Counted from the first letter of the stretch, positions 1 through 12,575 are shown. The stretch is DNA of 12,930 nt from an uncultured archaeon (GCA_964402015.1 CAYOAS010000022.1:1-12930); one strand, 5' to 3'. Translations and numbers: made by a program. The notes: generated by a model not told the origin, from the sequence alone.

Positions 1-382
1 GCAAAAAACAGGCACTACCAAATGTAGTCAATAAAATTCAGCTAAAAATCAGGTATCTAGATTGAAAAAAATAAGCCTAATAAAAAAGCGAGCCGGCTAA
101 TGACTTGGAAAAAAAGTAGCGATGGCAAAATATAAGTGTCAATCAAAACTTTCCCTTCCGCTACGCAACAGACAAAAAAGAACGGATGAAAACAGTAATA
201 GAAAGAGCGCTTGAATACAAGAAAGAAAAACAGCGCAGCTAACTTTTTGGATTTTGTTGTTTGTCTTTTGCTTGTGCCCAGAGAAATTCAAAAAAACCAA
301 ATTGTGGTGTTAGAATAAAATACAAACGTGTTTCATTTCCAGTTTGAAATGAATATTTCCTGCCAAAATTCTTCTTGTCACA

Positions 383-568
383 ATGGATTTTCTTTTGCCT
401 TCGCATATCGTTAACTATTTTAACGTTTCCAAGCACACTAGAACTATGCAAGAGTATAATGTAAAGCATGTTTCCCCTGTTGTTTCGCGGAAAAAATTCC
501 AGGGGCACGTTTATAATGTTACTACCGAAACAGGCAACTTGTTTGTAGAAGACATTTTGGTTCACAAT
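383..568 (+). mobile_element. Orphan intein C-terminal half (IntC-a) fused in frame to the Lon extein. There is an alternative internal start at ATG 446, which would give a 41-aa IntC.
   Basis: [26 protein letters not shown] followed by S at +1 is a canonical block F/G. It resembles the pattern of known short IntC halves such as Neq Pol IntC (...VILYDLSTESGKFYVNGLVLHN). No intein block A or B, and no Lon N-terminus, is present in the 382 nt upstream. That region is A-tract-rich and has stops in all frames. Confidence 0.6.
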
Positions 569-2305
569 TCAGGCGGCCTTGGAACTCCGGCGCACTTGAG
601 GATTGAAGCCGGCTTGATTCACAAAAGTTCCGGTGGCGTGCTATTTTTGGATGAAATTGCTACTCTTTCCCAGAAGGGGCAGCAGGAATTGTTGACAGCA
701 ATGCAGGAAAAAAAATATTCAATTACCGGCCAAAGCGAAATGTCTTCTGGAGCCATGACTAGAACAGAGCTGATTCCTTGTTTTCCGGCTGGAACAATAA
801 TTGCAACTGAAAAAGGCTTTGTTGAAATTGATAAATTTGTGAACGGGCTGTTTGAAAGTCAAGCATGGCAAGTTGGCAAAGAAAATAGTGTGGATTTTTT
901 GGATTTACTGGATTCTATTAAAGTTTGGGTTCCAACAGATAACGGAATTTTTTTAGACAAATTGGAACGAGTTTATAGGAAGCCTTTTTCTGGTAAATTA
1001 ATAAAAATTACTTTTGATGATGGCAGTGAATTATTGGCGACCAAAGAGCATCCAATTAAAACGCCAACGGGTTTTATCCAAGCAAAAGACCTTAAAATCA
1101 GGCAGGCAGTAGAAGCGATTTCACCAATAATTGATGATATGAAAATAATTGAAACATACAATAAAGAAAATCAGCGAGTTGCAAAGGCATATGCTGCTTG
1201 GAAAGCAAACCCATCATTAAAATCCAAAATACTCGGGGTTGATTATAAAACAATCGCTGCTTGGAAAAAAGGAACAGTGCCAAGGACCCTTCGTTGCATT
1301 GATTGGTTGAAAAAAAGAAAATTGCTTCCTTTGCTTTACGAGGATTCTAGATTGGGTCTGATTGCACGAATCAGTGGTGCTTTATTTGGAGACGGGGGTT
1401 TAACAAGAACTGGGTTGTTTTTTGTAACTGATTCAAACAGCAGAATGGACTTGGATGCTTTTAAGTATGATTTGATTAAAACTTTTGGGGACGATTTGGA
1501 ATCAAATTTTGTTTTCAGAAAACACGCTTCAAAAAAAGGGAGCGGTATTGATGTTTCTATGCATAATGCTTTTGTTTCCAGATTTTTTGCTGCGCTTCAG
1601 GTTCCTCGCAATGGCAAGGTAGCACAGCAGTTTGAAGTTCCTGCTTGGGTAAATTCTTCAAATGAAACAAAAAGAGAGTTTTTTTCTGCATTGTTATCCT
1701 GTGAAATGTGCGGCAAAATAAAAAATGCTGGCGGTAAAATATCATTTGTAATGGCAAAGGTTAAAAAATTTGAAAAACAACACATTGCTTTTTTAAATGA
1801 AATAAAAAATTTTTTGGCTGAAAACAAAATAGAGACGAGCAAAATTATTGAAAACAGGAGTTATATGAGAAATAAGACTGGCACGCCAGAAACTGCTGCG
1901 CTTTATTCTTTTAATATTCAGAATAACTGTGGGAATATTGCCCGCTTTATGAATCTGGTTCAGATTTGTTATGCAAGTAACAAAGCGGGTTATATGAAAA
2001 GGCGGTTTGAAGCAGCAGCAATTTACTCTGAAAATTTGGGAGTATTAAAAACAAATAAAGTTAATGCTCTGAAATTGCGGGCAAAGGGTTTAACTATAAA
2101 AGAAATAGGCAATTGCATTAAGCTTTCAAAAAACACTATCCTGAAGACAATTGAGCCGACTTACAATCAGTATTCTTCCATGCACAAAAAAATAGCAGCA
2201 GACCTAATGAAAACCGGCTTGACTGCCAAAAAAGCTGCGCTAAAATTAAAGATGCCATACACTACTTTACTTTATTGGAAAAATAATGGTGAAATGAATG
2301 TTTAA
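383..2305 (+). CDS. lon: Lon (LonB-type) protease fragment 1. It is a fusion of an intein C-terminal half (aa 1-62), the Lon AAA+ Walker-B/sensor-1 segment (aa 63-132), and the N-terminal splicing region plus LAGLIDADG endonuclease of a second intein (aa 133-640).
   Basis: The translation contains SGGLGTPAH...[13 protein letters not shown]...[33 protein letters not shown], which matches the archaeal LonB Walker-B region. The preceding ...[21 protein letters not shown]|S is an intein block F/G ending in His-Asn with Ser at +1. After ...TELIP the sequence [10 protein letters not shown] (intein block A) and ...ATKEHPI (block B, TxxH) follow. The ORF begins after an in-frame TGA at 350-352. The ORF track confirms the frame. 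Confidence 0.75.
569..778 (+). other. lon: Lon extein segment of 70 aa, covering Walker B (VLFLDEI) through the PCDF junction, and bounded by inteins on both sides.
   Basis: This is the aligned LonB motif run. It is interrupted exactly between the P and C of the conserved P-C-D-F(V/I)LVAAGN motif. Confidence 0.7.
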
Positions 2306-2417
2306 CACGACAACAAAAAAGATTGTTTCAATTGAAGAAACAGATTATTCCGGAATGGTTTATAATCTAAAAACAGTTTCTGGCACTTATTTGGCTAATG
2401 GTATTGCTGTTCATAAT
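779..2417 (+). mobile_element. Large intein (intein-b) inserted at the Lon PCDF site. Block A is at 779, block B at about 1040, the LAGLIDADG homing-endonuclease domain at about 1340-1800, HTH-like DNA-binding segments at about 2060-2280, and block F/G at 2350-2417.
   Basis: The intein starts at Cys ([14 protein letters not shown]) and ends [25 protein letters not shown] with Cys at +1 ([10 protein letters not shown]). Its length is 1639 nt, which is not a multiple of 3. The reading frame breaks at 2298-2305, where the gene 1 stop TAA overlaps the gene 2 ATG in ATGAATGTTTAA. The intein is therefore encoded across two ORFs. Confidence 0.75.
1340..1800 (+). other. LAGLIDADG homing-endonuclease domain inside intein-b.
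   Basis: Two LAGLIDADG-type motifs are present. [17 protein letters not shown] lies at nt 1352-1402. [16 protein letters not shown] lies at about nt 1673-1720. They are spaced about 100 aa apart, as in double-motif LAGLIDADG enzymes. Confidence 0.6.
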
Positions 2418-3506
2418 TGTGATTTTGTTCTGGTTGCAGCTGGAAATTATGAAGATTTGAGAAAGGTTCATCCCGCGCTCCGTTCAAGAATCCGCGGTTA
2501 TGGGTATGAGGTTTACATGAACAGTGACATGCCTGATACCCCGGAAAACAGGTTAAAGATTGTAAAATTTGTTGCGCAGGAAATAAAAAAGGACGGAAAA
2601 ATTCCTGCTTTTTCAAGAGAAGCTGTTGAAGAAATAATTTTTGAAGCAAGAAGGCGTGCGGGAAGCAAGAACAAGCTGACTTTGAAATTGCGCGATTTGG
2701 GCGGTCTTGTCCGCGCTGCCGGAGACCTTGCAAAAGAAAAGGGAAAAATTCTTGTAGAGCGCCAGGATGTTTTTGAGGCAAAAATGAGCGCAAGGACATT
2801 GGAGCAGCAGATGGTTGGAAAAATTTTGGAGCACAGGAGAGAATACAATGTTTATTTGACTGAAGGCAGTGCTGTCGGCAGAGTAAATGGCCTGGCTGTT
2901 TCTGGCGACGGGGATGCCGGCCTGGTTTTGCCAATCGAAGCAGAGATTGCACCGGCACAATCGAGCGCAGAGGGAAAAATAATTGCCACTGGAAAGCTTG
3001 GAGAAATTGCAAAAGAGGCAGTGCAAAATGTTTCGGCTCTTGTAAAAAAACTCAGTGGAAAAGACATAAGCAAATTCGATTTGCACATTCAGTTCTTGCA
3101 ATCTTATGAGGGCGTTGAAGGCGATTCTGCAAGCGTTTCTGTTGCAACAGCTGTCATCAGCGCGCTTGAGGGAATTCCGGTAAAGCAATCGCTTGCAATG
3201 ACTGGCTCTTTGAGCGTGCGCGGAGAAGTATTGCCAGTCGGCGGCATTAGTGCAAAAGTCCAGGCTGCAATAAAAGCTGGCTTTAAAGAAGTCATTGTTC
3301 CAAAATCAAATATTGAGGATATTGTTTTGCCGGAAAGCGAATTGAAAAAAATCCGTGTTGTTTCAGTTTCCAACATTTCCGATGTTTTGGATTGCGCATT
3401 TGAAAAATCAAGCCAAAAAATAAAGCTGTTGAAAGACCTGGACAAGCTAGTGAAAATCAATTTGTCAAGAGTAATAGAAAAAACAATAGAAAAAATTTCA
3501 GCCTAA
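2298..3506 (+). CDS. lon: Lon (LonB-type) protease fragment 2. It consists of an intein C-terminal half (aa 1-40, IntC-b) followed by the Lon AAA+ C-terminal subdomain and the Ser-Lys protease domain (aa 41-402).
   Basis: The product starts [40 protein letters not shown]|[10 protein letters not shown]. Downstream are the sensor-2 motif ALRSRI and the protease domain, with catalytic Ser in GDSASVS and Lys in [10 protein letters not shown]. The start overlaps the gene 1 stop by 8 nt. Confidence 0.8.
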
Positions 3507-3674: not shown

Positions 3675-4046
3675 ATGGCTCAAAAAGCTAAGATGTCGAG
3701 ACCATTTCGAAGAGGAGTTGTTTGTCTTAAGAGGGCTTGGCGCGTAATTGTAGGCTCTTACAAGACAGGAAGGGGCACGGGTCGTACTGATGCACTCAAA
3801 GAAGCAGCGCTTGTTGAAATGAAAAAGAAAAAACCTGATTGGGAAAAAATACTTCGTGTCAGAAAAGCAGTGGAAGAGGACATTAAACGCAACGAAGAAT
3901 TTATACGGCAAGTCAGGAAACTAATGAAAACTGCTCAAAAAATAGGCAAACCAGCTGATTCATATGAGGGCTTTATAAAAAAATCGCAAGCAGCCATTTT
4001 GTCCCATAAAAGGTTCTTGCGTAAAATAGGCTGGAGACACAGGTAG
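3675..4046 (+). CDS. Hypothetical small protein of 123 aa, very basic (K/R-rich), with no recognised family.
   Basis: A clean ORF with an ATG start. An AT-rich TATA-like segment (aataataaa) lies about 30 nt upstream. A convergent terminator hairpin lies downstream. Function is not assignable from sequence. Confidence 0.45.
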   Translation: MAQKAKMSRPFRRGVVCLKRAWRVIVGSYKTGRGTGRTDALKEAALVEMKKKKPDWEKILRVRKAVEEDIKRNEEFIRQVRKLMKTAQKIGKPADSYEGFIKKSQAAILSHKRFLRKIGWRHR

Positions 4047-4091: not shown

Positions 4092-5342
4092 TCAGTTTGC
4101 TAATATTATTCTTCCGTCGCGGAATGTGAAGTCTTTTTTCTTTATTTTTGCTGTTTCTTTTGTGCGCACGTTATGGAAAGCAATGTTTTCTTTTTCCGCG
4201 TCAATTGCTTCAATTTTTCCGAGCCATTTTCCCTGTTTGTCGTAAACTGGCAATCCCATTAATAGTTTTGTTATTTTTCCGCGCACGTCAAAGACCTTTG
4301 AAGACTGGTAAACGAGGAATAATACCAAAAAGCTGAACAGAATGCATCCCAAAAACCAGTTTAAATCTGCTTGTTTCAGGAACACTTGAGTTCCTGCATC
4401 CAGAATCAGCCAGACCAGGAAAATTGAAACGGAATACAAAAAATACTTGCGCAGTGCAAACGCTTTTTTGAAGTGCACAGTGTCAATTCCTTTTCCGATT
4501 ACAAAGCTGAGTGCGGAAAGCGCTGCAAAAAAATATGCTTGTTGCGCGCTCTGGATTGAATTCAATACAAATTCAAGGTCTTTGTTTGCCGCAAAATTTG
4601 CATATGCTGTTATTGCGCCGAAAGCGAGAATGAAAACGCTCCCGATATAAAAAGGAAAGCTCATGCGCTGTATTGAAAAGCTCGAGCCAAAACTCCTTAT
4701 TCCGGAAACAATGGGTTCTTCCAAACCAAAGCCTTTCAAGAGGAAATATATTCCGATTACAAGCGAAACCAATTGCAGGCTGAGGGAACCAAAGAAAAAA
4801 TATGCCAAAAAAATTACTGCCGGAATAAGCAACAGCCTTGAAATGCTCGGGTCCTTGAACGCTTCAATTATTGTATAATAAGTGCTTTCCACTTCTTTTG
4901 CCTGTTTTATTATTACAACCTCTTTTGAAACCAACCGCATTTTTGATTGCAGCAACGGCAATACCTGCTCGTCTTCCGCGCCGTCAGTTACGAGCACAAA
5001 ACCGTCCGCGGGATTTTTTTCCAGAATTGAATCCAATTGCTCCATTATTTGCCTGTCGGACTTGAAACCGCTTTTGTCAACGCCAGTAAATATTGCTACC
5101 TCTGTATTCTGGATTTCTTCTTTTACCTCGTCAAATTTTTTTATTGCCGCAAACATGCTGTTTGAATCGCTTTCAGAGGGATCTGCAACAGCCAATTTTG
5201 CTGCTGCATTCAATACAGCGCGCCTGCCAATGACCGGGCCTTGAATGCCTGTTTTTCTGCCCAAATCGTTGTCGCGGTCAACGCACACTACCAAAATGCT
5301 GTTAATCGTCTTCAATTCTACCACATTTAACCCTATTGCCAA
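4092..5342 (-). CDS. DUF373-family archaeal integral membrane protein. The N-terminal soluble domain carries an ILVVCVDRDNDLG motif. About 6 TM helices follow. The C-terminus has a small beta-rich domain.
   Basis: The N-terminal ...ILVVCVDRDNDLGRKTGIQGPVIGRRAVLNAAAKLAVADPSESDSN matches my recollection of the DUF373 signature. Hydrophobic helices occupy aa about 170-350. The annotated start at 5342 is a TTG, and an in-frame GTG lies at 5324. No ATG occurs before aa 63. Confidence 0.5.
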   Translation of the reverse strand: MAIGLNVVELKTINSILVVCVDRDNDLGRKTGIQGPVIGRRAVLNAAAKLAVADPSESDSNSMFAAIKKFDEVKEEIQNTEVAIFTGVDKSGFKSDRQIMEQLDSILEKNPADGFVLVTDGAEDEQVLPLLQSKMRLVSKEVVIIKQAKEVESTYYTIIEAFKDPSISRLLLIPAVIFLAYFFFGSLSLQLVSLVIGIYFLLKGFGLEEPIVSGIRSFGSSFSIQRMSFPFYIGSVFILAFGAITAYANFAANKDLEFVLNSIQSAQQAYFFAALSALSFVIGKGIDTVHFKKAFALRKYFLYSVSIFLVWLILDAGTQVFLKQADLNWFLGCILFSFLVLFLVYQSSKVFDVRGKITKLLMGLPVYDKQGKWLGKIEAIDAEKENIAFHNVRTKETAKIKKKDFTFRDGRIILAN

Positions 5343-5422: not shown

Positions 5423-5560
5423 ATGGAGAAAACGAGCATTTCTATTTGGAAAGACACAGTAGAAAAAGTTGCTGTTTTGGCTAAAAAAGAAAATCGTAGC
5501 ATATCGGCTCAGATAGATTACATTATACAAAAATATTTTGAAGGACAGGGAAAAAAATGA
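5423..5560 (+). CDS. Ribbon-helix-helix (CopG/Arc/MetJ-type) DNA-binding protein of 45 aa.
   Basis: Translated by hand as MEKTSISIWKDTVEKVAVLAKKENRSISAQIDYIIQKYFEGQGKK. It shows a beta-strand (SISIW), helix 1, an N-R-S turn, then helix 2, which is the classic RHH layout. Its stop TGA overlaps the tnpB start in ATGATGG. It is absent from the ORF track only because it is shorter than 60 aa. Confidence 0.55.
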   Translation: MEKTSISIWKDTVEKVAVLAKKENRSISAQIDYIIQKYFEGQGKK

Positions 5561-6741
5561 TGGCATACAAGTTTCGGCTTTATCCTTCAAAACAACAAGC
5601 ACAGGCATTGTTCAAGACATTCAATTTGTGCAGATTCATATACAACAATCTATTGGAAAAACTGAACAATAGCAAAAAGATTAATAGAAAAGCAATCCAA
5701 CATTTAATTGTTGAATTGAAAAAAGAATATCCTGAACTAAAAACGGTTTATTCAAAAACATTGCAGTATGAATGTTATCGGTTGTTTAGCAATTTGTGTT
5801 CATTATCCCGATTGAAAAAGAAAGGGCAAAAGGTGGGAAAATTGCGTTTCAAGGGAAGAGATTGGTTCAAGACAATCAATTACAATCAAAGCGGTTTCAA
5901 GTTGGAGCAAACAGGAAAACGCTTTGGCAAATTATCTCTTTCAAAAATAGGCAATCTAAACATTCGTTGCCACAGAATAACAAGCGGAAAAATCAAGCAA
6001 ATAACAATCAAGAAAAGCGCAAACAAGTGGTATGCTATTCTAATAACTGATGGAACAAACAATCGCCAATGTGGAACTAGAAAGATTGGCTTGGACTTGG
6101 GAATAATCAATTTTGTTGCAGACAGCAATGGCAACAAAACAAAATCACCATTGTTCTTGAAAAAGAACTTGGCAAAAATCAAGTTGGCACATCAAGATTT
6201 ATCAAGAAAAAAAAGGGGAAGCCAAAACAGAAAAAAGTTAAAACAACATTTAAACAAACTTTATGAAAAGGTTGATGACCAACGAAACGATTTTTTGCAA
6301 AAGCTATCAACAAAAATCGTTTCAGAAAACAAACTAATCTGTATAGAAAAGCTCGTCATCAATAAAATGGTTAACAACAAGAAAAACAAACATTGGAACA
6401 AGCGGAATATGCTTGATTGTTCTTGGGCAACATTTACTTCCCTACTAAAACGCAAGGCTGAAAGTGCTGGTGCAAAAGTAATAGAAGTAAATCCAAAGAA
6501 CACAACAAAAACGTGCAGCAATTGTGGAACTATGCAAGATATTCCATTATCACAGAGAACATACTCTTGTGATTGTGGATTGGAATTGGATAGGGATACA
6601 AATGCCGCTAAAAATATATTGGCTCTGGGACAGGGCTTTGTTGAGAAATTTCCTCTACCTTCCGACAATGTTGGAATGCAAGAACATTCAATGAAACAAG
6701 AAGCCATAACCTCAACACTAAAAGCGTTAGGTTATGAATAG
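5557..6741 (+). CDS. tnpB: IS200/IS605-family TnpB (OrfB), an RNA-guided RuvC-like nuclease.
   Basis: The N-terminus AYKFRLYPSKQQAQALFKTFNLCRFIYNN is the typical OrfB_IS605 start. The RuvC-I motif is IGLDLGI. The RuvC-II motif is LICIEKL. The zinc ribbon is CSNCG...SCDCG. The RuvC-III motif is LDRDTNAAKNI. All catalytic residues are present. Confidence 0.85.
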   Translation: MMAYKFRLYPSKQQAQALFKTFNLCRFIYNNLLEKLNNSKKINRKAIQHLIVELKKEYPELKTVYSKTLQYECYRLFSNLCSLSRLKKKGQKVGKLRFKGRDWFKTINYNQSGFKLEQTGKRFGKLSLSKIGNLNIRCHRITSGKIKQITIKKSANKWYAILITDGTNNRQCGTRKIGLDLGIINFVADSNGNKTKSPLFLKKNLAKIKLAHQDLSRKKRGSQNRKKLKQHLNKLYEKVDDQRNDFLQKLSTKIVSENKLICIEKLVINKMVNNKKNKHWNKRNMLDCSWATFTSLLKRKAESAGAKVIEVNPKNTTKTCSNCGTMQDIPLSQRTYSCDCGLELDRDTNAAKNILALGQGFVEKFPLPSDNVGMQEHSMKQEAITSTLKALGYE

Positions 6742-6830: not shown

Positions 6831-6842
6831 AAGTGGTAATTG

Positions 6843-7838
6843 ATGGCAAAACGATTGGGCCAACTGGAAAGCTATAAGGTAAAACAATGGATTTTTGTCC
6901 TTATTGCAATACTGGTTTGTGCAATAATTTATCTTTCCATGGCAAACCAGGAAACAATTGTCCCGCTTGTTCTGGTTCTTGCACTTTCGGCAATAGCTCT
7001 TTTTTTAGTAAAACAATACGATTTTTTGCTTACACTAAAGGAATACGAACGCGCTGTAATTTACCGCTTTGGCCATGTGAACAGGGTTGGCGGGCCAGGC
7101 TGGACTTTAATGTTGCCACTGATTGAATCTTTCAAGCTCGTTGATTTGCGCACAAGCACTATCGACATTCCCGAACAAGAAGTAATAACCAAAGACAAGA
7201 TTGTAACAAAGGTTGACGCAATTGTTTATTTGTACGTAAAGCCTGACAGCAGTTCTGTAACGCACAGCGTTATTGAAATTGATGATTACAGAAAGGCAGC
7301 GGAATTGTTTGTTCTTTCTTCAATCCGCGATGTTGGCGGAACAATGACCTCGAGCGAACTGATTTCAAACACAGCAGAGCTTAACACAAAAGTAAAAGAA
7401 AAAGTTTCCCAGATTGCCGACAGTTGGGGCGTTACAATTGAAAGCGTTGAAATCAGCAGCATAAAATTGCCAGAAACAGTTGCAAGCGCAATGCACGAGC
7501 AAAAAGCAGCAGAGCAAAAAAAGCTCGCGCGAATGGAATCAGCGCTCGCAAACCAAGCAGAAATAGACGCAGTAAGGACAGCAGCAGACCAGTTAAGCGA
7601 CAAGGCGCTTGCCTATTATTACATTCGCGCTTTGGAAAAGCTTGGAGAAGGGCCTTCAACAAAATTCATTTTTCCAATGGAATTAAGCAAGCTTGCTGAA
7701 CAGCTTGCGGGCAGAGTAAAAAGCGGTGTTTCATCTGGAGATTCTGAAATGGAAAAATTGTTCAAAAAATATGCGCCAGCAATAAAAGCCTTTGTTGAAA
7801 ACGAAAAAAAACAAAAAGGCAACGCAAAAAAGCGATGA
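6843..7838 (+). CDS. SPFH/band-7 (stomatin/prohibitin-like) membrane protein.
   Basis: There is an N-terminal TM helix. It is followed by YERAVIYRFGHVNRVGGPGWTLMLPLIESFKLVDLRTSTIDIPEQEVITKDKIVTKVDAIVYLYV, a canonical SPFH core. The C-terminus is coiled-coil-like and Ala/Glu/Lys-rich. The track start at 6840 is a TTG. The ATG at 6843 is preferred. Confidence 0.8.
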   Translation: MAKRLGQLESYKVKQWIFVLIAILVCAIIYLSMANQETIVPLVLVLALSAIALFLVKQYDFLLTLKEYERAVIYRFGHVNRVGGPGWTLMLPLIESFKLVDLRTSTIDIPEQEVITKDKIVTKVDAIVYLYVKPDSSSVTHSVIEIDDYRKAAELFVLSSIRDVGGTMTSSELISNTAELNTKVKEKVSQIADSWGVTIESVEISSIKLPETVASAMHEQKAAEQKKLARMESALANQAEIDAVRTAADQLSDKALAYYYIRALEKLGEGPSTKFIFPMELSKLAEQLAGRVKSGVSSGDSEMEKLFKKYAPAIKAFVENEKKQKGNAKKR

Positions 7839-7850
7839 ATTTGCGCGACA

Positions 7851-7857
7851 GATTCTT
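7851..7857 (+). terminator. T7 run 13 nt downstream of the SPFH stop. It is an archaeal-type oligo-T terminator candidate.
   Basis: ttttttt lies immediately after the stop at 7836-7838. A 7-bp hairpin, aagcaat/attgctt, lies at 7931-7951 between the convergent genes. Confidence 0.35.
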
Positions 7858-7983
7858 TTTTTAGCCAATGCAATTAAGCAGTTCACTAAAGAACAATGGC
7901 TTAACGCTCTAGGCTTTAAGCTGAAGATAAAAGCAATATTGATTATTGCTTCTAAAACGCCGTGGAATTTATTCTATGGTTCT

Positions 7984-8823
7984 TCACACGTTGAGAATAA
8001 GGTATGCCTCAATTATTGCTGCTGCGAATAATACAATGAATGCTGTCACGACAAGCACTGCTGCATCCTTTAAGCAGTTTTCAAAAATGTTTTTTTTGTA
8101 TTTTCTCGTTATGCCAACGCTGATTATGCCGCCGGCAATTGCGCCAATAAAATAAGCTGTTATTTCCGGAATGCCGTGCGGCAGCAATCCAATCGCGCGC
8201 ATGCTTGCCCTCACGAGGTCTGTTGCAAGCAATTCTTTTCCAATTACAAGGCCAATCACTGAAGCATTCCATGCTATGAGAAAAATCGCGCCAACGCCAT
8301 ATGCAAAGCTGAAGAGTATTGCCCATAATAATACCATTGCGTTGTTGTAGAAAATGCAGTTAATTGCAAGGCCAAAAATGTCAGAGCTCTTGCACGCTGT
8401 TGCTAAAGCGCTTGTTTGTGTCGCGTTCCCGCGCAAATTGGTTATCTGAAGCCATGTTGTTTCCTGTTCCTTGAAAGCAAGGTCGCGTTGTGGTGCGGGC
8501 AAATAATAATACCAAAAAGCATAGCAGACAATCAAGCCAATGAAAAACCAGCTGTAGACTTCAATTATGTCAAAATGCCTTTCGAGGAACGTTAACGGGG
8601 GACCCGGGCATTTTTCCTCTTCTTTTTCTTCTTTGATAAAAATAGCGTAAAGCACTGGCACTATTGCCACTGTAACAAAAGCAATGCCTAAAACGCTTGC
8701 TGCGTTTGGAAAGGTTTGCAGGCTCGCGAAGATGCCGACAGTGCACAATACAAAGGCATTGACAAGCATTGCAATTGGGTGCCTTCTTGCAAAATTTGCC
8801 TTTAAAACAGATTCCAAAACCAT
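7984..8823 (-). CDS. SpoIIM/DUF95-family integral membrane protein.
   Basis: It is a multi-TM protein. Its C-terminal motif ...AIGLLPHGIPEITAYFIGAIAGGIIS resembles the hG.pE motif of stage II sporulation protein M-like proteins (DUF95). It has an ATG start at 8823. Confidence 0.45.
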   Translation of the reverse strand: MVLESVLKANFARRHPIAMLVNAFVLCTVGIFASLQTFPNAASVLGIAFVTVAIVPVLYAIFIKEEKEEEKCPGPPLTFLERHFDIIEVYSWFFIGLIVCYAFWYYYLPAPQRDLAFKEQETTWLQITNLRGNATQTSALATACKSSDIFGLAINCIFYNNAMVLLWAILFSFAYGVGAIFLIAWNASVIGLVIGKELLATDLVRASMRAIGLLPHGIPEITAYFIGAIAGGIISVGITRKYKKNIFENCLKDAAVLVVTAFIVLFAAAIIEAYLILNV

Positions 8824-8891: not shown

Positions 8892-8899
8892 TATTTAAA
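8892..8899 (+). promoter_or_regulatory. TATA-box-like element (tatttaaa) about 40 nt upstream of csl4, in a divergent intergenic region.
   Basis: It is an AT-rich octamer resembling the archaeal TATA consensus, at a suitable distance from the ATG at 8940. It has not been checked for a BRE. Confidence 0.3.
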
Positions 8900-8939
8900 C
8901 CCGCTCTTTTTTGCTGTTGTTTGAAAAAGGTTTTTTTTT

Positions 8940-9524
8940 ATGAGTCAAGACAAGGAAAGCGAAAGCAAAATGGTTTTTCCAGGCACATTCCTCGGGGCAG
9001 AAGAAGAATATCTTGCCGGAAAGAATGCTGGTGTTGATGATTATGGCAATATTGTCGCCTGCACTGTTGGAAAAAAGGAAACAATCGCGCGCAACCGCAG
9101 CATTGAAATAAAAAAGCCCGGCAAGAACGCTTTGCCTTTCGAGCCAAATGATATTATCCTTGGCAGGATTTCTCTTGTAAAAGAGAACAGTGCAATGGTT
9201 GAAATTGACAGCGCAGAGCGCAACGGAATGGAAAAAAAGATTTTGCGCGGAGTTGCGGCAATAATGATCAGAATGGTTGACGCTGGTTTTGTAAGGCAAT
9301 TGTCGGACAAATTTCGCATTGGCGATATTGTAAAGGCAAAGATTGTTTCAGTTAGTTCCTGTGGCATCGATTGCAGCACTGCTGACGACAGGGAATTTGG
9401 GGTAATAAAGGCTTTCTGCAAAAAATGCAGGCAGCCGTTGCAATTGTTTGGAATGCAGTTGAAATGCCTTAATTGTGGCAATACTGAAACGCGGAAGATT
9501 TCAAGCGATTATGTTTTGAAATAA
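8940..9524 (+). CDS. csl4: Exosome complex RNA-binding protein Csl4 (S1 domain plus C-terminal zinc ribbon).
   Basis: The N-terminus is VFPGTFLGAEEEYLAGKNAGVDDYGNIVA. An S1-like segment is GDIVKAKIVSV. The C-terminus is CKKCRQPL...LKCLNCGNTETRK (CxxC...CxxC). This is the archaeal Csl4 architecture. Confidence 0.7.
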   Translation: MSQDKESESKMVFPGTFLGAEEEYLAGKNAGVDDYGNIVACTVGKKETIARNRSIEIKKPGKNALPFEPNDIILGRISLVKENSAMVEIDSAERNGMEKKILRGVAAIMIRMVDAGFVRQLSDKFRIGDIVKAKIVSVSSCGIDCSTADDREFGVIKAFCKKCRQPLQLFGMQLKCLNCGNTETRKISSDYVLK

Positions 9525-9548
9525 TAAAATAAAATTTGAGGTGTTTTT

Positions 9549-9824
9549 GTGGAAATTGAAATAATCAAAAGCCAGCAGAATCACGCGGAATTCAAGATAA
9601 AGGGAGAAAGGCATACTTTGCCAAACCTGTTGCGCAACCGCCTGCTGAAAGACAGCAGCGTTGTTTTTGCAGCATACAAGCTTAAACACCCGCTCGACAA
9701 CGATTCTGTTTTTGTAATAACAACAAAAGGAAAAACCGCAAAAAAAGCATTGCAGGAAGCCTGCAACAAAATCGATTCCGAACTGGAAGAATTGCGCAAG
9801 GCAATAAAAAAAGCAATGAAGTGA
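9549..9824 (+). CDS. rpoL: DNA-directed RNA polymerase subunit L (Rpb11 homologue).
   Basis: The 91-aa product EIEIIKSQQNHAEFKIKGERHTLPNLLRNRLLKDSSVVFAAYKLKHPLDNDSVFVITTKG matches the RpoL/Rpb11 pattern. It has a GTG start with a GAGGTG Shine-Dalgarno sequence 8 nt upstream. Confidence 0.7.
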   Translation: MEIEIIKSQQNHAEFKIKGERHTLPNLLRNRLLKDSSVVFAAYKLKHPLDNDSVFVITTKGKTAKKALQEACNKIDSELEELRKAIKKAMK

Positions 9825-9852
9825 GCGCGAATTGTTTTACCTAAAGCCATTG

Positions 9853-10401
9853 ATGAGAACAATTGCTTTTGACGATGGTTATTTCAAACCCAAAAAAAAA
9901 GGCAAGGCGCTTTTGGTCGGCATTCTTTCCCGCTTTGACAACCACATTGAAGGAATTGTTTCCGCCAAAATTTCCGTTGACGGCTTTGACAGCACAAAAA
10001 AAATTTTTGGCTTGATAAAAAAAACGCGTTTTGGCGAACAAGCGCAGTTCATTCTGCTTAGCGGCTTGAACTTTGCGGGCTTCAACATTGTTGATGTGCT
10101 GCAATTGTTCAAGAAAACCAAAAAGCCAGTAATTATTATTTTTCGCAAAAAGCCCGATTTGAAAAAGTTTTTTTTGGCAATAAAAAAAACCAAGAGTGCA
10201 ATGAAGCGCCGGCAGCTTGTTTTGAAAGCCGGGGCAATTTATTCTGTTGGAAAGATTCATTTTCAGGCAATCGGAATTTGCAAAAGAGACGCCGCGCAAT
10301 TAATAAAAAGGCTTTGCGCCAACTCTAACTTGCCAGAGCCAATCAGGCTGGCGCACCTGGTTGCGAGCGGACTTTCTCTGGGGGAAAGCACGCGCCCGTG
10401 A
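9853..10401 (+). CDS. DUF99/UPF0215-family protein, a conserved archaeal protein of unknown function with an endonuclease-V-like fold.
   Basis: MRTIAFDDGYFKPKKKGKALLVGILSRFDNHIEGIVSAKISVDGFDSTKK matches my recollection of the UPF0215 N-terminal motif (G.DDG.F ... LVGV ... DG.D.T). The track start at 9832 is a TTG. The ATG at 9853 is preferred. Confidence 0.45.
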   Translation: MRTIAFDDGYFKPKKKGKALLVGILSRFDNHIEGIVSAKISVDGFDSTKKIFGLIKKTRFGEQAQFILLSGLNFAGFNIVDVLQLFKKTKKPVIIIFRKKPDLKKFFLAIKKTKSAMKRRQLVLKAGAIYSVGKIHFQAIGICKRDAAQLIKRLCANSNLPEPIRLAHLVASGLSLGESTRP

Positions 10402-11180
10402 AAATAAAAAGTTTAGTATTTGAAGAGTGGTTTTTTTTGGGCATAATGGACAAACTGAAATGGCTTGACCCGTTCACTTATGTGGATTTACTGCTTGAAA
10501 AATTCAATCCAAACCACAACAAAGTTGTTGACTGGTCTGTTTACCTTGTCAGCGCTTTCGTTTTTGCCTGGATATTGTACTCGCTTTTTGGCATTGCCTT
10601 TGGAACAAGCGCGCCATTCGTAATTGTTTTGAGCCCCAGCATGGAACCAGTATTATATCGGGGAGACATTGTTGTGATGGTTGGCGCGGCTCCTGAAACA
10701 ATAAAGGCGCAATCTACAATAATTGATTTTCCTTTGGGTGAAAAAGCATTTTGGGATTTTGGAAAAATAGCTTATGGCACTGACGAAAAGGGAAATCTTT
10801 TTGCAAAAAATATTTTTTTGAGCGAGCAACAGGTTTTTGACATTACAAAAGACGGGGACACGATTGTTTATTTTTCGCAGTACAGGCAGGAACCAATCAT
10901 TCACCGGGCAGTGCTGAAAATAATCGCTCCCGATGGAACTTTCATTATAACGAAGGGTGACAGCATTCACAATACGACAATTGACCAGGATTGCGGGCGC
11001 GTTATCAATGAAAGGCCGGAACGCGATTGCATTACTCTTTATCCAATAACTGCAAAAGACATTCAGGGAAAAATGTTGTTCAAAATTCCCTTGCTTGGAT
11101 ATGTCAAGCTGTTGATTTTTGATGACATTCCACAGCTCTTGTTCGGCTGCCCGAAAGGAAGGGTTTGCTATTTTCCGTAA
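10398..11180 (+). CDS. Signal peptidase I (S26B, Sec11-type archaeal signal peptidase).
   Basis: A TM helix is followed by VLSPSMEPVLYRGDIVV (catalytic Ser box), IIHRAV (His box) and ITKGDSIHN (conserved Asp box). The GTG start overlaps the upstream stop in GTGA. An alternative ATG start lies at 10446. Confidence 0.6.
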   Translation: MKIKSLVFEEWFFLGIMDKLKWLDPFTYVDLLLEKFNPNHNKVVDWSVYLVSAFVFAWILYSLFGIAFGTSAPFVIVLSPSMEPVLYRGDIVVMVGAAPETIKAQSTIIDFPLGEKAFWDFGKIAYGTDEKGNLFAKNIFLSEQQVFDITKDGDTIVYFSQYRQEPIIHRAVLKIIAPDGTFIITKGDSIHNTTIDQDCGRVINERPERDCITLYPITAKDIQGKMLFKIPLLGYVKLLIFDDIPQLLFGCPKGRVCYFP

Positions 11181-11264
11181 GGGCTTATTATAAAAAAAGT
11201 TTTTTTGTGCAGTTTCCTTTAAAAATTTGTTGAACCAAAGAATCTGAATCGAAATGGTGAAAGA

Positions 11265-12014
11265 ATGGTAGAACTTGTTTTGGAGAATGCTGCTGTGTTC
11301 AAGAAGTGCATTGATGCTATTTCTGTTTTGATTGACGAAGCCGAGTTTATTATTGACAAGGATGCTGTGCGCCTGAAGGCAACTGACCCTTCGCAGATTT
11401 CAATGGTTGATTTTGTATTGGAAAAAAGCGCTTTCAAGCATTACCGCGTTGAAAACCTTACGAAAATCGGATTGGATTTGGATTATTTGTCGCAGGTAAT
11501 GAGCCGCGCTGGTTCAAGCGATGAATTAATGCTTTCGCTTGACGAGGCAAAATCGCGGTTGATTGTTTCTTTCAATGGAACTTCAAAACGCAGCTTTTCC
11601 GTTCCATTGATCGATGTCAGCGCCGCGGAACTGCCGACGCCAAAAATAGAGTTTGATTCAACAATAAAAATGTTGGCGGGAATTTTCCAGGACGGCTTGA
11701 AGGATGCTGTGCTTATTAGCTCGCACATTACTGTTGGGGTAAGCGATGACAATTTTTTCCTTAAAGCTAATTCAAGCAAGGGCAGTGTTGAAAACACGAC
11801 AAGCAACAAGGAAAAAGGCATTATTGATTTCAAGGCAACAAAAGAATGCACAAGCATGTTTCCGCTTGATTACCTGACTGACATGTTAAAGGTTGCAAGC
11901 TCTGACAATGAAATAACAGTTTACCTGAAAAACAATGCCCCCATAAAAATTTCTTATTTGATTGGCAAAGCGCAGATAACTTATTTCCTTGCGCCGCGCA
12001 TAGAAACAGAATAA
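11265..12014 (+). CDS. pcn: DNA polymerase sliding clamp (PCNA).
   Basis: The product is 249 aa. FKKCIDAISVLIDEAEFIIDKDAVRLKATDPSQISMVDFVLEKSAFKHYRVEN...IGLDLDYLSQVM matches the archaeal PCNA N-domain. Its length and two-domain repeat are typical. Confidence 0.8.
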   Translation: MVELVLENAAVFKKCIDAISVLIDEAEFIIDKDAVRLKATDPSQISMVDFVLEKSAFKHYRVENLTKIGLDLDYLSQVMSRAGSSDELMLSLDEAKSRLIVSFNGTSKRSFSVPLIDVSAAELPTPKIEFDSTIKMLAGIFQDGLKDAVLISSHITVGVSDDNFFLKANSSKGSVENTTSNKEKGIIDFKATKECTSMFPLDYLTDMLKVASSDNEITVYLKNNAPIKISYLIGKAQITYFLAPRIETE

Positions 12015-12095
12015 AATTGAGGACTATTAGTTTTTTTTCTTTGCAAACAATTATATTTTTAACAGATTCAGAATTTGTTTTTTTCGGGTGTGCAA

Positions 12096-12575
12096 ATGAT
12101 TTGTTTTATTGCGCTATTTGTTTTTGCAATTCTGGCGATTTTCTCTGCAAGATACAGGCCGTTTGCTTTGGAAGCATTCGACTGCGTTTTCCGCAGGGTA
12201 ACATTGCGCCCGTGCACAACTGGCTTTGACAAGAAAATGAAAATGCGCATCAGCACAAGGCTATTGGCAAAAAACCCGTGCTTGGGAAAGTTTGTGAACA
12301 AGCACTTCGAGGCTATTTCTTGGTTGCTGACAATAACAATGATAGCCAGCTTTTTTTATGCTGCTCTTGGAGTTTACAACTGGTGGGCATTCGGCAACTG
12401 CAACGGCCCGAATAGCAATGCTGCCTGCATATTAAATGACCTCACTGGCAAAAACGAGCCGCTGGGCTGCGAATGCGATGTAAATGGTTGCACCCAACAG
12501 GATATAGCCTATTGCAATGGCGACTGCAATTGCCTTTCGAGCCTCTGCCTGCAACAGGCAATATATCCAAAATAA
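12096..12575 (+). CDS. Hypothetical membrane protein with 3 predicted TM helices and a Cys-rich C-terminal extracytoplasmic tail.
   Basis: The ORF is preceded by the TATA-like ttatattttt at about 12050-12059, which makes the ATG at 12096 likelier than the upstream ATG at 12075. The C-terminus GNCNGPNSNAACILNDL...GCECDVNGCTQQDIAYCNGDCNC contains 11 Cys. No family is recognised. Confidence 0.4.
   Translation: MICFIALFVFAILAIFSARYRPFALEAFDCVFRRVTLRPCTTGFDKKMKMRISTRLLAKNPCLGKFVNKHFEAISWLLTITMIASFFYAALGVYNWWAFGNCNGPNSNAACILNDLTGKNEPLGCECDVNGCTQQDIAYCNGDCNCLSSLCLQQAIYPK

Follow-up and report, generated by a model that had tools for sequence, protein, structure and literature searches.

How can a complete LonB protease be made from a locus whose first reading frame opens with the end of one intein and closes inside another? 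This question is raised by a stretch of 12,930 nucleotides from an uncultured archaeon (GCA_964402015.1 CAYOAS010000022.1:1-12930; hereafter the window), which is an entire contig and stems, with high probability, from an Iainarchaeia-like archaeon (Diapherotrites, DPANN) with a genuine lonB locus. An earlier note, made from the sequence alone, had proposed a candidate three-fragment trans-spliced LonB for positions 383-3506. This proposal is supported by relatives that possess all three genes, by a separate gene for the N-terminal part of LonB in some 35 species, and by the conservation of the second split. Very probably, the LonB protease is encoded here in three pieces (genes A, B and C), which would be joined after translation via two split inteins.

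Genes B and C of the window

Two of the three genes are present in the window, both on the plus strand like all their parts: gene B (ORF1; longest form 383..2305, 640 aa) and gene C (ORF2; 2298..3506, 402 aa). From N to C terminus, gene B encodes the 41-aa C-terminal half of a first split intein (IntC1, 446..568), 70 aa of LonB (the middle extein, SGGLGTPAH...TRTELIP, 569..778, positions ~190-267 of the LonB profile TIGR00764), and the 508-aa N-terminal half of a second split intein (IntN2, 779..2305), which contains a LAGLIDADG homing endonuclease (HE) and ends with a stop codon. Gene C encodes the 40-aa C-terminal half of this second intein (IntC2, 2298..2417), then Cys+1 and the remainder of LonB, i.e., 362 aa from Cys+1 (2418..3506) comprising the remaining part of the AAA+ module as well as the LID and S16 protease domains. 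In the public annotations, both genes are wrongly named (gene B, "sigma 54-interacting transcriptional regulator"; gene C, "S16 family serine protease").

The N-terminal intein piece of ORF1 closes with ...EDILVHN and is followed directly by SGGLGTPAH (junction at nt 568/569), with Ser63 as the +1 nucleophile of intein 1; as described in the earlier note, site 1 thus holds the C-terminal half of an intein alone, at the very beginning of the first gene. The middle extein possesses the Walker B motif VLFLDE. Intein 2 starts with Cys133 (nt 779, CFPAGT) and contains block B (TKEH, residues 220-223, nt 1040), two LAGLIDADG motifs (GALFGDGG and FFSALLSCE, nt 1376-1399 and 1679-1705) and C-terminal helix-turn-helix (HTH) helices that extend up to the stop codon (2303-2305), before block F. 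The block F/G piece is found in gene C, which, as also noted earlier, has its own ATG (nt 2298) and encodes a 40-aa IntC ending ...GIAVHN before Cys+1 (nt 2418). The searches with intein profiles that had been suggested as a check gave matches: ORF1 is hit by NCBIfam intein_Nterm (E 6.5e-12), and IntC2 by NCBIfam intein_Cterm as well as by positions 119-155 of Pfam Intein_splicing.

The LonB extein is collinear across both ORFs. Residues 43-133 of ORF1 correspond to positions 175-267 of TIGR00764, and residues 40-381 of ORF2 to positions 266-606 of 608 (E 1.6e-152), in line with the earlier description of LonB as collinear and complete from SGGLGTPAH onward. The window thus covers positions 175-606 of the profile, and about the first 190 positions, with Walker A and the transmembrane hairpin, are absent; gene C alone scores 509.2 bits at a cut-off of 516.6. 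Gene C further matches Lon_C (E 1.2e-34) and LonB_AAA-LID in Pfam and contains the S16 protease motifs GDSAS (3120-3134) and GGISAK (3240-3257). The LonB N-terminal extein was not found on the plus strand of the window by tblastn, as the earlier note had said, but the scope of that statement has to be corrected: upstream of ORF1 the contig comprises only 382 nt.

These 382 nt contain two features. A sequence resembling a TFB recognition element (BRE) and TATA box, AACTATTTTAACG (413..425, plus strand), ends ~21 nt before the ATG at 446 and may serve as a promoter; a motif aaC(C/T)TATTTAA lies ~21-30 nt upstream of the Met of IntC1 in most of 15 related loci. Because both this motif and the Met are conserved, gene B is likely to be 446..2305, starting with Met22 of the longest ORF. 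The earlier note was right about the extent of the ORF, but its start at 383 is probably not the real one, which appears to be the ATG at 446, as in the 15 relatives. Judged from this short distance, the gene B mRNA is probably leaderless or near-leaderless. The second feature is the 3' remnant of a free-standing LAGLIDADG HE gene (120..242, plus strand, ~40 codons and a stop codon), which encodes, in frame 3, ...ISVNQNFPFRYATDKKERMKTVIERALEYKKEKQRS before the stop. It is 62% identical over 26 aa to the HE of the relative L002 (tblastn, E 1e-7), matches positions 295-327 of 329 in a hidden Markov model (HMM) of 12 free-standing HEs (21.2 bits, E 1.9e-8) and, at the DNA level, resembles the 3' end of the L012 HE gene (window 139-221, blastn, 79.5% over 83 nt, E 3e-14) as well as the HE genes of L007 and L005. 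Since all three frames contain stop codons in window 1..119, the HE gene is reduced here to its 3' remnant, and this remnant would place the window in an A-HE-B-C layout. Elsewhere, the HE gene is frameshifted in L015 and absent from L006, L013 and L052. A short open frame at the very beginning (window 1..62, frame 3, KKQALPNVVNKIQLKIRYLD followed by a stop) was considered as the end of the N-terminal half of intein 1 (IntN1) and rejected, as the IntN1 HMM gave no signal (-2.5 bits).

An N-terminus that is not on the contig and a neighbouring endonuclease gene of which only a remnant is left could be taken as signs of a decaying lonB pseudogene, in which the N-terminal part was lost and intein 2 was frameshifted. 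However, no stop codon interrupts the 640 and 402 codons of the two ORFs, and in comparison with L002, the closest relative (72% identity in gene B, 89% in the middle extein), the ratio of nonsynonymous to synonymous substitutions (dN/dS) is low in every module, IntC1 included: 0.14 in IntC1, 0.04 in the middle extein, 0.21 in the Hint part and 0.20 in the HE/HTH part of IntN2, 0.08 in IntC2 and 0.10 in the C-extein, all of them rough values as dS is near saturation. Furthermore, the equal break is present in dozens of species with the functional residues kept, and the N-terminal gene is located 0.3-3 kb upstream in the relatives, that is, past the end of this contig. A pseudogene is therefore very unlikely.

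The split at site 2 and the probable location of gene A

Is the break in intein 2 a stable state? Homologues of gene B were collected from NCBI, JGI, ENA and Logan assemblies of Diapherotrites/Iainarchaeia and Micrarchaeota. The search with ORF1 yielded 21 further proteins (584-811 aa, 37-72% identity, query coverage 90-97%), and the count of 22 used below refers to the gene B sequences that could be parsed. Cys1 and block B (TP(E/D)H or TKEH at ~position 88) are present in all 22 IntN2 sequences, which have a length of 507-520 aa, apart from one HE-less variant of 142 aa, and in 22/22 cases stop at most 12 residues beyond PYTT(V/L)LYWK or close variants of it. A chimeric query that spans the junction (the last 157 aa of IntN2 and the first 120 aa of gene C) recovered ~25 clusters (and one partial) of 378-408-aa proteins that start exactly at IntC2; all 25 gene C-type proteins begin with an IntC2 of 37-50 aa ending HN/CDF (in such motifs, a slash marks the splice junction or insertion site). 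No contiguous intein 2 was found among 5.8 billion proteins; as none covers more than 45% of the chimeric query, no contiguous relative of this intein is detectable. The cut between the endonuclease/DNA-binding region and block F, which the earlier note had read from the single sequence, is thus the same in 22/22 gene B and 25/25 gene C proteins, so that at least 22 and 25 protein clusters, respectively, share it. It reappears from genome to genome in independent assemblies and is maintained by selection.

The DNA junction between genes B and C could be read in six loci. In the window the genes overlap by 8 nt (...GAA ATG AAT GTT TAA for the end of gene B and ATG TTT AAC... for the start of gene C), ORF2 being in the +1 frame relative to ORF1; L002 and L009 share this junction (AATGTTTAA), and L067 has an 8-nt overlap in the +1 frame as well (ATGCCTGA). 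L001 has a 4-nt overlap (ATGA) and L045, in which the HE is deleted, a 13-nt overlap, both in the -1 frame. A fragment of the Shine-Dalgarno (SD) consensus is present a few nt before the gene C ATG in each of the six loci (GGTGA, GAGGAG, AGGTGAT, GGGGTG or GAGGT); in the window, this is GGTGA at 2288..2292 (plus strand), 5 nt before the gene C ATG and still inside the end of gene B; it may function in initiation there. The pattern fits translational coupling of two cistrons.

As the ORFs overlap and are one frame apart, and such overlaps can host recoding sites, a programmed frameshift or read-through across the break could in principle produce a contiguous, cis-splicing intein 2. The shift required for this would have to be +1 in the window, L002, L009 and L067 but -1 in L001 and L045. 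A slippery sequence common to these loci is lacking, an in-frame ATG with an SD-like motif is present in every gene C, and the HE-less L045 keeps the two-ORF layout. We rejected a programmed frameshift at the junction on the grounds of the differing frame relation and regard recoding in general as highly improbable. Similarly, the short metagenome-assembled contig raises the suspicion that the breaks are assembly or sequencing artefacts, i.e., a single-base indel at 2298-2305 (one indel would fuse ORF1 and ORF2) and a 5' truncation of the contig. However, the split recurs across independent assemblies, assemblers and sources, at 37-85% protein identity and with differing junctions, and it is a conserved promoter motif, not coding sequence, that precedes IntC1; the probability of an artefact is next to nil. 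Because the geometry of the junction varies between genomes, both a sequencing error and a shared recoding site are excluded as its cause.

For site 1, the question is where the N-terminal part of LonB is encoded. One genome per species was scanned with gene A of the closest relative as query, and the best 80 of 391 relatives were retained and annotated module by module. About 35 species among these 80 possess a separate gene A, which encodes the LonB N-extein ending ...DVRHDPLQ, then IntN1 and a stop codon. IntN1 comprises 114-134 aa (163 aa in one case), starts with Ser, Cys or Thr and contains block B TPEH or close variants. Its counterpart IntC1 is 39-46 aa long in the relatives, counted from the conserved Met, and ends with a conserved Asn/Ser junction (HN in 11/16). 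Many DPANN proteins of ~470 aa annotated as "LonB" consist in fact of IntC1 and the rest of LonB, without intein 2.

The relatives L001, L002 and L009 have all three genes in one locus and share with the window the downstream genes for DUF373, Band_7, SpoIIM, Csl4, RpoL, Endo_dU and PCNA. In L002, gene A (7807..8799) is followed by a free-standing HE gene (8892..9866), gene B (10001..11857) and gene C (11850..13067); L009 likewise has a free-standing endonuclease gene between genes A and B. In L001, this gap contains an unrelated 233-aa ORF (9130..9831) with a weak Zn_dep_PLPC match and no homing endonuclease. When the inteins are removed, the extein modules of the three-gene relatives cover LonB from end to end. 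By analogy to these syntenic relatives, gene A of the window's genome (LonB 1 to ~207 and an IntN1 of ~125 aa) would be located upstream, past the end of the contig.

The identity of intein 1 can be deduced from its two halves. Site 1 is the insertion site of the contiguous Lon intein in Pyrococcus, Thermococcus and Archaeoglobus, and the Pyrococcus Lon intein has, at its C-terminus, a sequence homologous to IntC1. In the comparison of the halves with known inteins, another check proposed earlier, L002 IntN1 combined with IntC1 of the window could be aligned over the full length of both the MJ0781 KlbA mini-intein (2jmz) and the natural split intein NrdJ-1 (8ubs). As far as can be judged from these similarities, intein 1 is the known Thermococcales Lon intein cut into genes for IntN, HE and IntC, with the HE decayed in the window.

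Proposed assembly of LonB

We propose that a TATA-type promoter of its own drives the transcription of gene B and that gene C is translated from the gene B mRNA by SD-dependent coupled initiation at the overlapping stop and start codons. IntN1 would then pair with IntC1 and IntN2 with IntC2, each pair giving a complete Hint fold, and two trans-splicing reactions (with Ser+1 at site 1 and Cys1/Cys+1 at site 2) would produce a normal membrane-bound LonB of ~640 aa with release of the intein halves. The middle fragment has an IntC-extein-IntN topology, and the two inteins therefore have to be orthogonal for LonB to form. Taken further, a single protein would be made here, in nature, from three separately encoded fragments by two orthogonal split inteins. 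Intein 2 would be split as a protein yet, at the DNA level, still be one mobile element that possesses a functional endonuclease, and the LonB of Iainarchaeia and Micrarchaeota would keep every intermediate of the birth of a split intein: the contiguous intein with HE, the break between HE and IntC, separate genes, decay or loss of the HE, and dispersal of the halves. We consider this wider reading rather probable.

The structure predicted for gene B agrees with this order of modules. The AlphaFold 2 (AF2) model, built from a 19-sequence alignment (predicted local distance difference test, pLDDT, 77.6), matches in Foldseek the HE-containing inteins TliVMA (7qss) and PI-TkoII (2cw7), the endonucleases I-DmoI and E-DreI, and WhiA, which indicates for IntN2 the sequence Hint N-terminal part, LAGLIDADG core and HTH helices up to the stop codon. 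D337 and E441 of the endonuclease are invariant in the 19 sequences; motifs, acidic residues and fold are thus those of a double-motif LAGLIDADG endonuclease, and IntN2 is predicted to contain such a nuclease. The model also matches crystal structures obtained with split-intein circular ligation of peptides and proteins (SICLOPPS; 5ol5 and 5ol6, TM-score 0.77 over 228 alignment columns).

Several points weigh against the proposed assembly. Gene A of the window's genome is absent from the window, which is the whole contig, and none of the fetched contigs overlaps its 5' end. Four contigs cut after gene A (L011, L016, L018 and L048) were considered as the missing neighbour and rejected: they show no overlap, and their G+C contents are 45.5, 32.3, 48.0 and 51.0% versus 39.2% in the window. 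A scan of JGI metagenome contigs with gene B gave 88 pattern matches but no relative, and exact look-ups of ORF1, ORF2 and PCNA of the window in an index of gene positions gave no entry. The dN/dS values are only approximate for the reason given above. Furthermore, IntC1 seems to be placed on IntN2 of the same chain in the AF2 model, which calls the orthogonality of the two inteins into question and suggests that cross-reactivity or cyclisation of the 70-aa middle extein has to be considered; this docking may be a modelling artefact due to the homology of IntC1 and IntC2. There is also no clear charge complementarity between the halves of the kind seen in DnaE: although IntC1 has a basic beginning (+3 to +8 in its first 20 aa), no consistent acidity is observed in IntN1, and IntC2 is neutral. 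Finally, the structures of the genes, the degree to which they are conserved and the presence of the catalytic residues can be read directly from the genomes, whereas the pairing of the halves, splicing, promoter use and translational coupling are deduced from them.

This last point leaves room for another explanation, namely that the intein halves hold the LonB fragments together non-covalently, without a peptide bond, resulting in a multi-chain AAA+ protease. Reassembly without splicing has a precedent: phage NrdA is reportedly interrupted by the gene of an endonuclease, and its parts come together again by means of interaction domains. However, docking alone requires none of the splicing residues, which are strictly kept at site 2 (Cys1/TxxH in 22/22 and HN/Cys+1 in 25/25 sequences) and conserved at site 1 (Ser/Cys/Thr1 and the TPEH-like block B of IntN1, the Asn/Ser end of IntC1). 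In addition, we expect that a 508-aa endonuclease appendage within an AAA+ ring would probably obstruct hexamer assembly. A non-covalent assembly is thus unlikely, and trans-splicing of the three LonB fragments is preferred in the following.

Origin of the split inteins, known systems and neighbouring genes

Different states of intein 1 are preserved side by side in the relatives. At site 1, a contiguous intein with HE is found in P0121, P0025, P0028, L019, L020, L082 and Pyrococcus, and a contiguous mini-intein in L077. Separate genes for IntN, HE and IntC are present in L002 and at least 10 others; the HE is decayed in L015 and the window and lost in L006, L013 and L052. In many Micrarchaeota gene A is present, and the sequence examined downstream of it (up to 7 kb) contains no gene B. 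The free-standing genes retain the order of the contiguous intein: when compared with the contiguous intein of P0121, L002 IntN1 extends up to residue 329 of the latter, and the free L002 HE sets in at residue 333. The "fractured" layout thus represents a contiguous intein that has been dissected collinearly. Site 2 occurs in a form that is cut only between HE and IntC and in an HE-less split form, the latter only in L045/P0023.

Intein 2 occurs together with a split site 1 (window, L001, L002, L009), with an uninterrupted site 1 (P0006, L045, L067) and with a contiguous intein at site 1 (P0121). These three states show that the two inteins assort independently, as expected if at least one of them is still mobile. 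Presumably, intein 2 can still home, since it forms one uninterrupted element in the DNA and its endonuclease is apparently intact; the predicted target, site 2 of an intein-less lonB, would read ...ACNGARCCNGTNCCN/TGYGAYTTY.... Between the window and L002, dS is 0.8-1.6 in intein 2 (779..2417) and 1.8-3.4 in the LonB exteins, all near saturation; this difference is a hint at a more recent horizontal spread of intein 2 compared with the divergence of the host gene.

Further inteins were observed in these proteins. Gene A of L001 (6669..9077) contains a third, contiguous LAGLIDADG intein inside Walker A (GTGK/CLTAD...FSHN/SMLAQ), and by its sequence the LonB of L001 is a protein that needs one cis-splicing and two trans-splicing events. 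L006 (6223..9195) has a contiguous intein within the middle extein, after residue 13, and L024 (5660..8860) a different contiguous intein at site 1. Judged from these insertions, inteins have at least four sites in LonB of these DPANN lineages, which is a hotspot for them. Several site-1 inteins (P0121, P0025, P0028, L019, L020, L052) have Thr as the first residue (...DPLQ/TFFP... or TIFP...), and other members of the same site-1 intein family start with Ser or Cys. To our knowledge, Thr1 is unusual among class 1 inteins.

Natural split inteins are, as far as we know, few, and nearly all of them reside in replication or nucleotide-metabolism genes of cyanobacteria, phages and Nanoarchaeum, with two pieces each. 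Our literature search revealed no split intein connected with Lon/LonB, DPANN, Micrarchaeota or Diapherotrites, and no natural three-fragment case; the natural cases in the searched literature are two-piece ones, in accordance with the earlier remark that splicing of a protease from three genes would be unusual. Among the closest known systems is the LonB intein of Pyrococcus, Thermococcus and Archaeoglobus (PabLon, PfuLon), which shares with intein 1 the insertion site (DVRHDPxQ/SGGLGTPAH), the endonuclease family and a homologous C-terminal splicing block (ETYNITTETGNLLANGLLVKN/S in one of the pair compared). However, it is one cis-splicing polypeptide, whereas here IntN, endonuclease and IntC are encoded by separate genes, with an HE remnant in the window. 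Site 2 (TExxP/) is unoccupied in the LonB sequences of Thermococcales and Archaeoglobus that were retrieved. The P. abyssi Lon intein is mentioned as biochemically studied in passages of PMC4031507 (its reference 84) and PMC3906313.

The gene order resembles that of the fractured genes (Dassa et al. 2009), with N-extein-IntN, HE and IntC-C-extein genes in a single orientation. This layout is seen in L002, L004, L005, L007-L010, L012, L014 and L017. The window has a remnant of it, with only the last ~40 HE codons present and gene A off the contig; the full arrangement occurs in L002 and at least 10 other loci. The loss of the HE and the genomic uncoupling predicted by the model of Dassa et al. 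(2009) are seen here as well. The cases described by these authors are phage-like DNA-metabolism genes from marine metagenomes with GIY-YIG or Vsr-like endonucleases and consist of two pieces each. In contrast, the host gene here is an archaeal protease gene, the endonuclease is of the LAGLIDADG type and collinear with the HE of a contiguous intein, and a second split intein leads to three pieces. With the classical split inteins (cyanobacterial DnaE, Nanoarchaeum equitans PolB, gp41-1, NrdJ-1), the LonB inteins share the split between blocks B and F, an IntC of ~40 aa, an IntN1 of ~115-135 aa and halves fused to extein fragments. They differ from them in that the classical ones lack an endonuclease, whereas IntN2 has 508 aa because the whole endonuclease and HTH region is retained, and in that two split inteins occur in one host protein, which is a protease and not a replication enzyme. 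The IntC-extein-IntN topology of gene B is otherwise known from engineered tandem trans-splicing and SICLOPPS constructs for three-fragment ligation and peptide cyclisation. Unlike these laboratory-made designs, the arrangement here is natural, and its halves derive from different inteins, which, as we infer, must not cross-pair.

With LonB, the system would thus add a protease of DPANN archaea to the hosts of known split inteins; it would also add a split intein that has kept the homing endonuclease on its N-half, and a LAGLIDADG fractured gene visibly derived from a contiguous intein. Two split inteins on one protein would imply natural orthogonality, as the middle fragment would otherwise cyclise. 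The states found across ~80 species would offer a direct view of the origin of split inteins and the dispersal of split genes in reduced genomes and, if our interpretation is true, would make the long-standing evolutionary model of split intein birth directly testable. IntN1/IntC1, IntN2/IntC2 and the HE-less L045 pair are candidate protein-ligation tools; they would be natural and presumably orthogonal pairs, and Cys-free ones at site 1 where IntN1 of the relatives starts with Ser (Ser1/Ser+1).

Downstream of gene C, the window contains genes for DUF373 (4092..5342, minus strand) and Band_7 (6840..7838, plus strand), with a TnpB/IS605 OrfB-type ORF in between (5557..6741, plus strand; OrfB_IS605, Cas12f1-like TNB and HTH_OrfB matches). 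As the DUF373 and Band_7 genes are adjacent in L001 and L002, the TnpB-type ORF is an insertion specific to the window genome. Scans of the window for tRNA genes and Rfam families gave no matches. Three ORFs on the plus strand have no Pfam match (3675..4046, 123 aa; 10398..11180, 260 aa; 12075..12575, 166 aa). The 123-aa ORF is rich in lysine and arginine and is located between gene C and the DUF373 gene; L002 has a different ORF of 311 aa at this place. In the Micrarchaeota L026 (3033..4448), L049 (3820..5232) and L076 (3586..5013), a second, shorter Lon-like AAA+ paralogue is present ~1.5-2.2 kb upstream of gene A; its N-terminal part is 32-40% identical, and it matches only the first ~135 residues of the C-extein.

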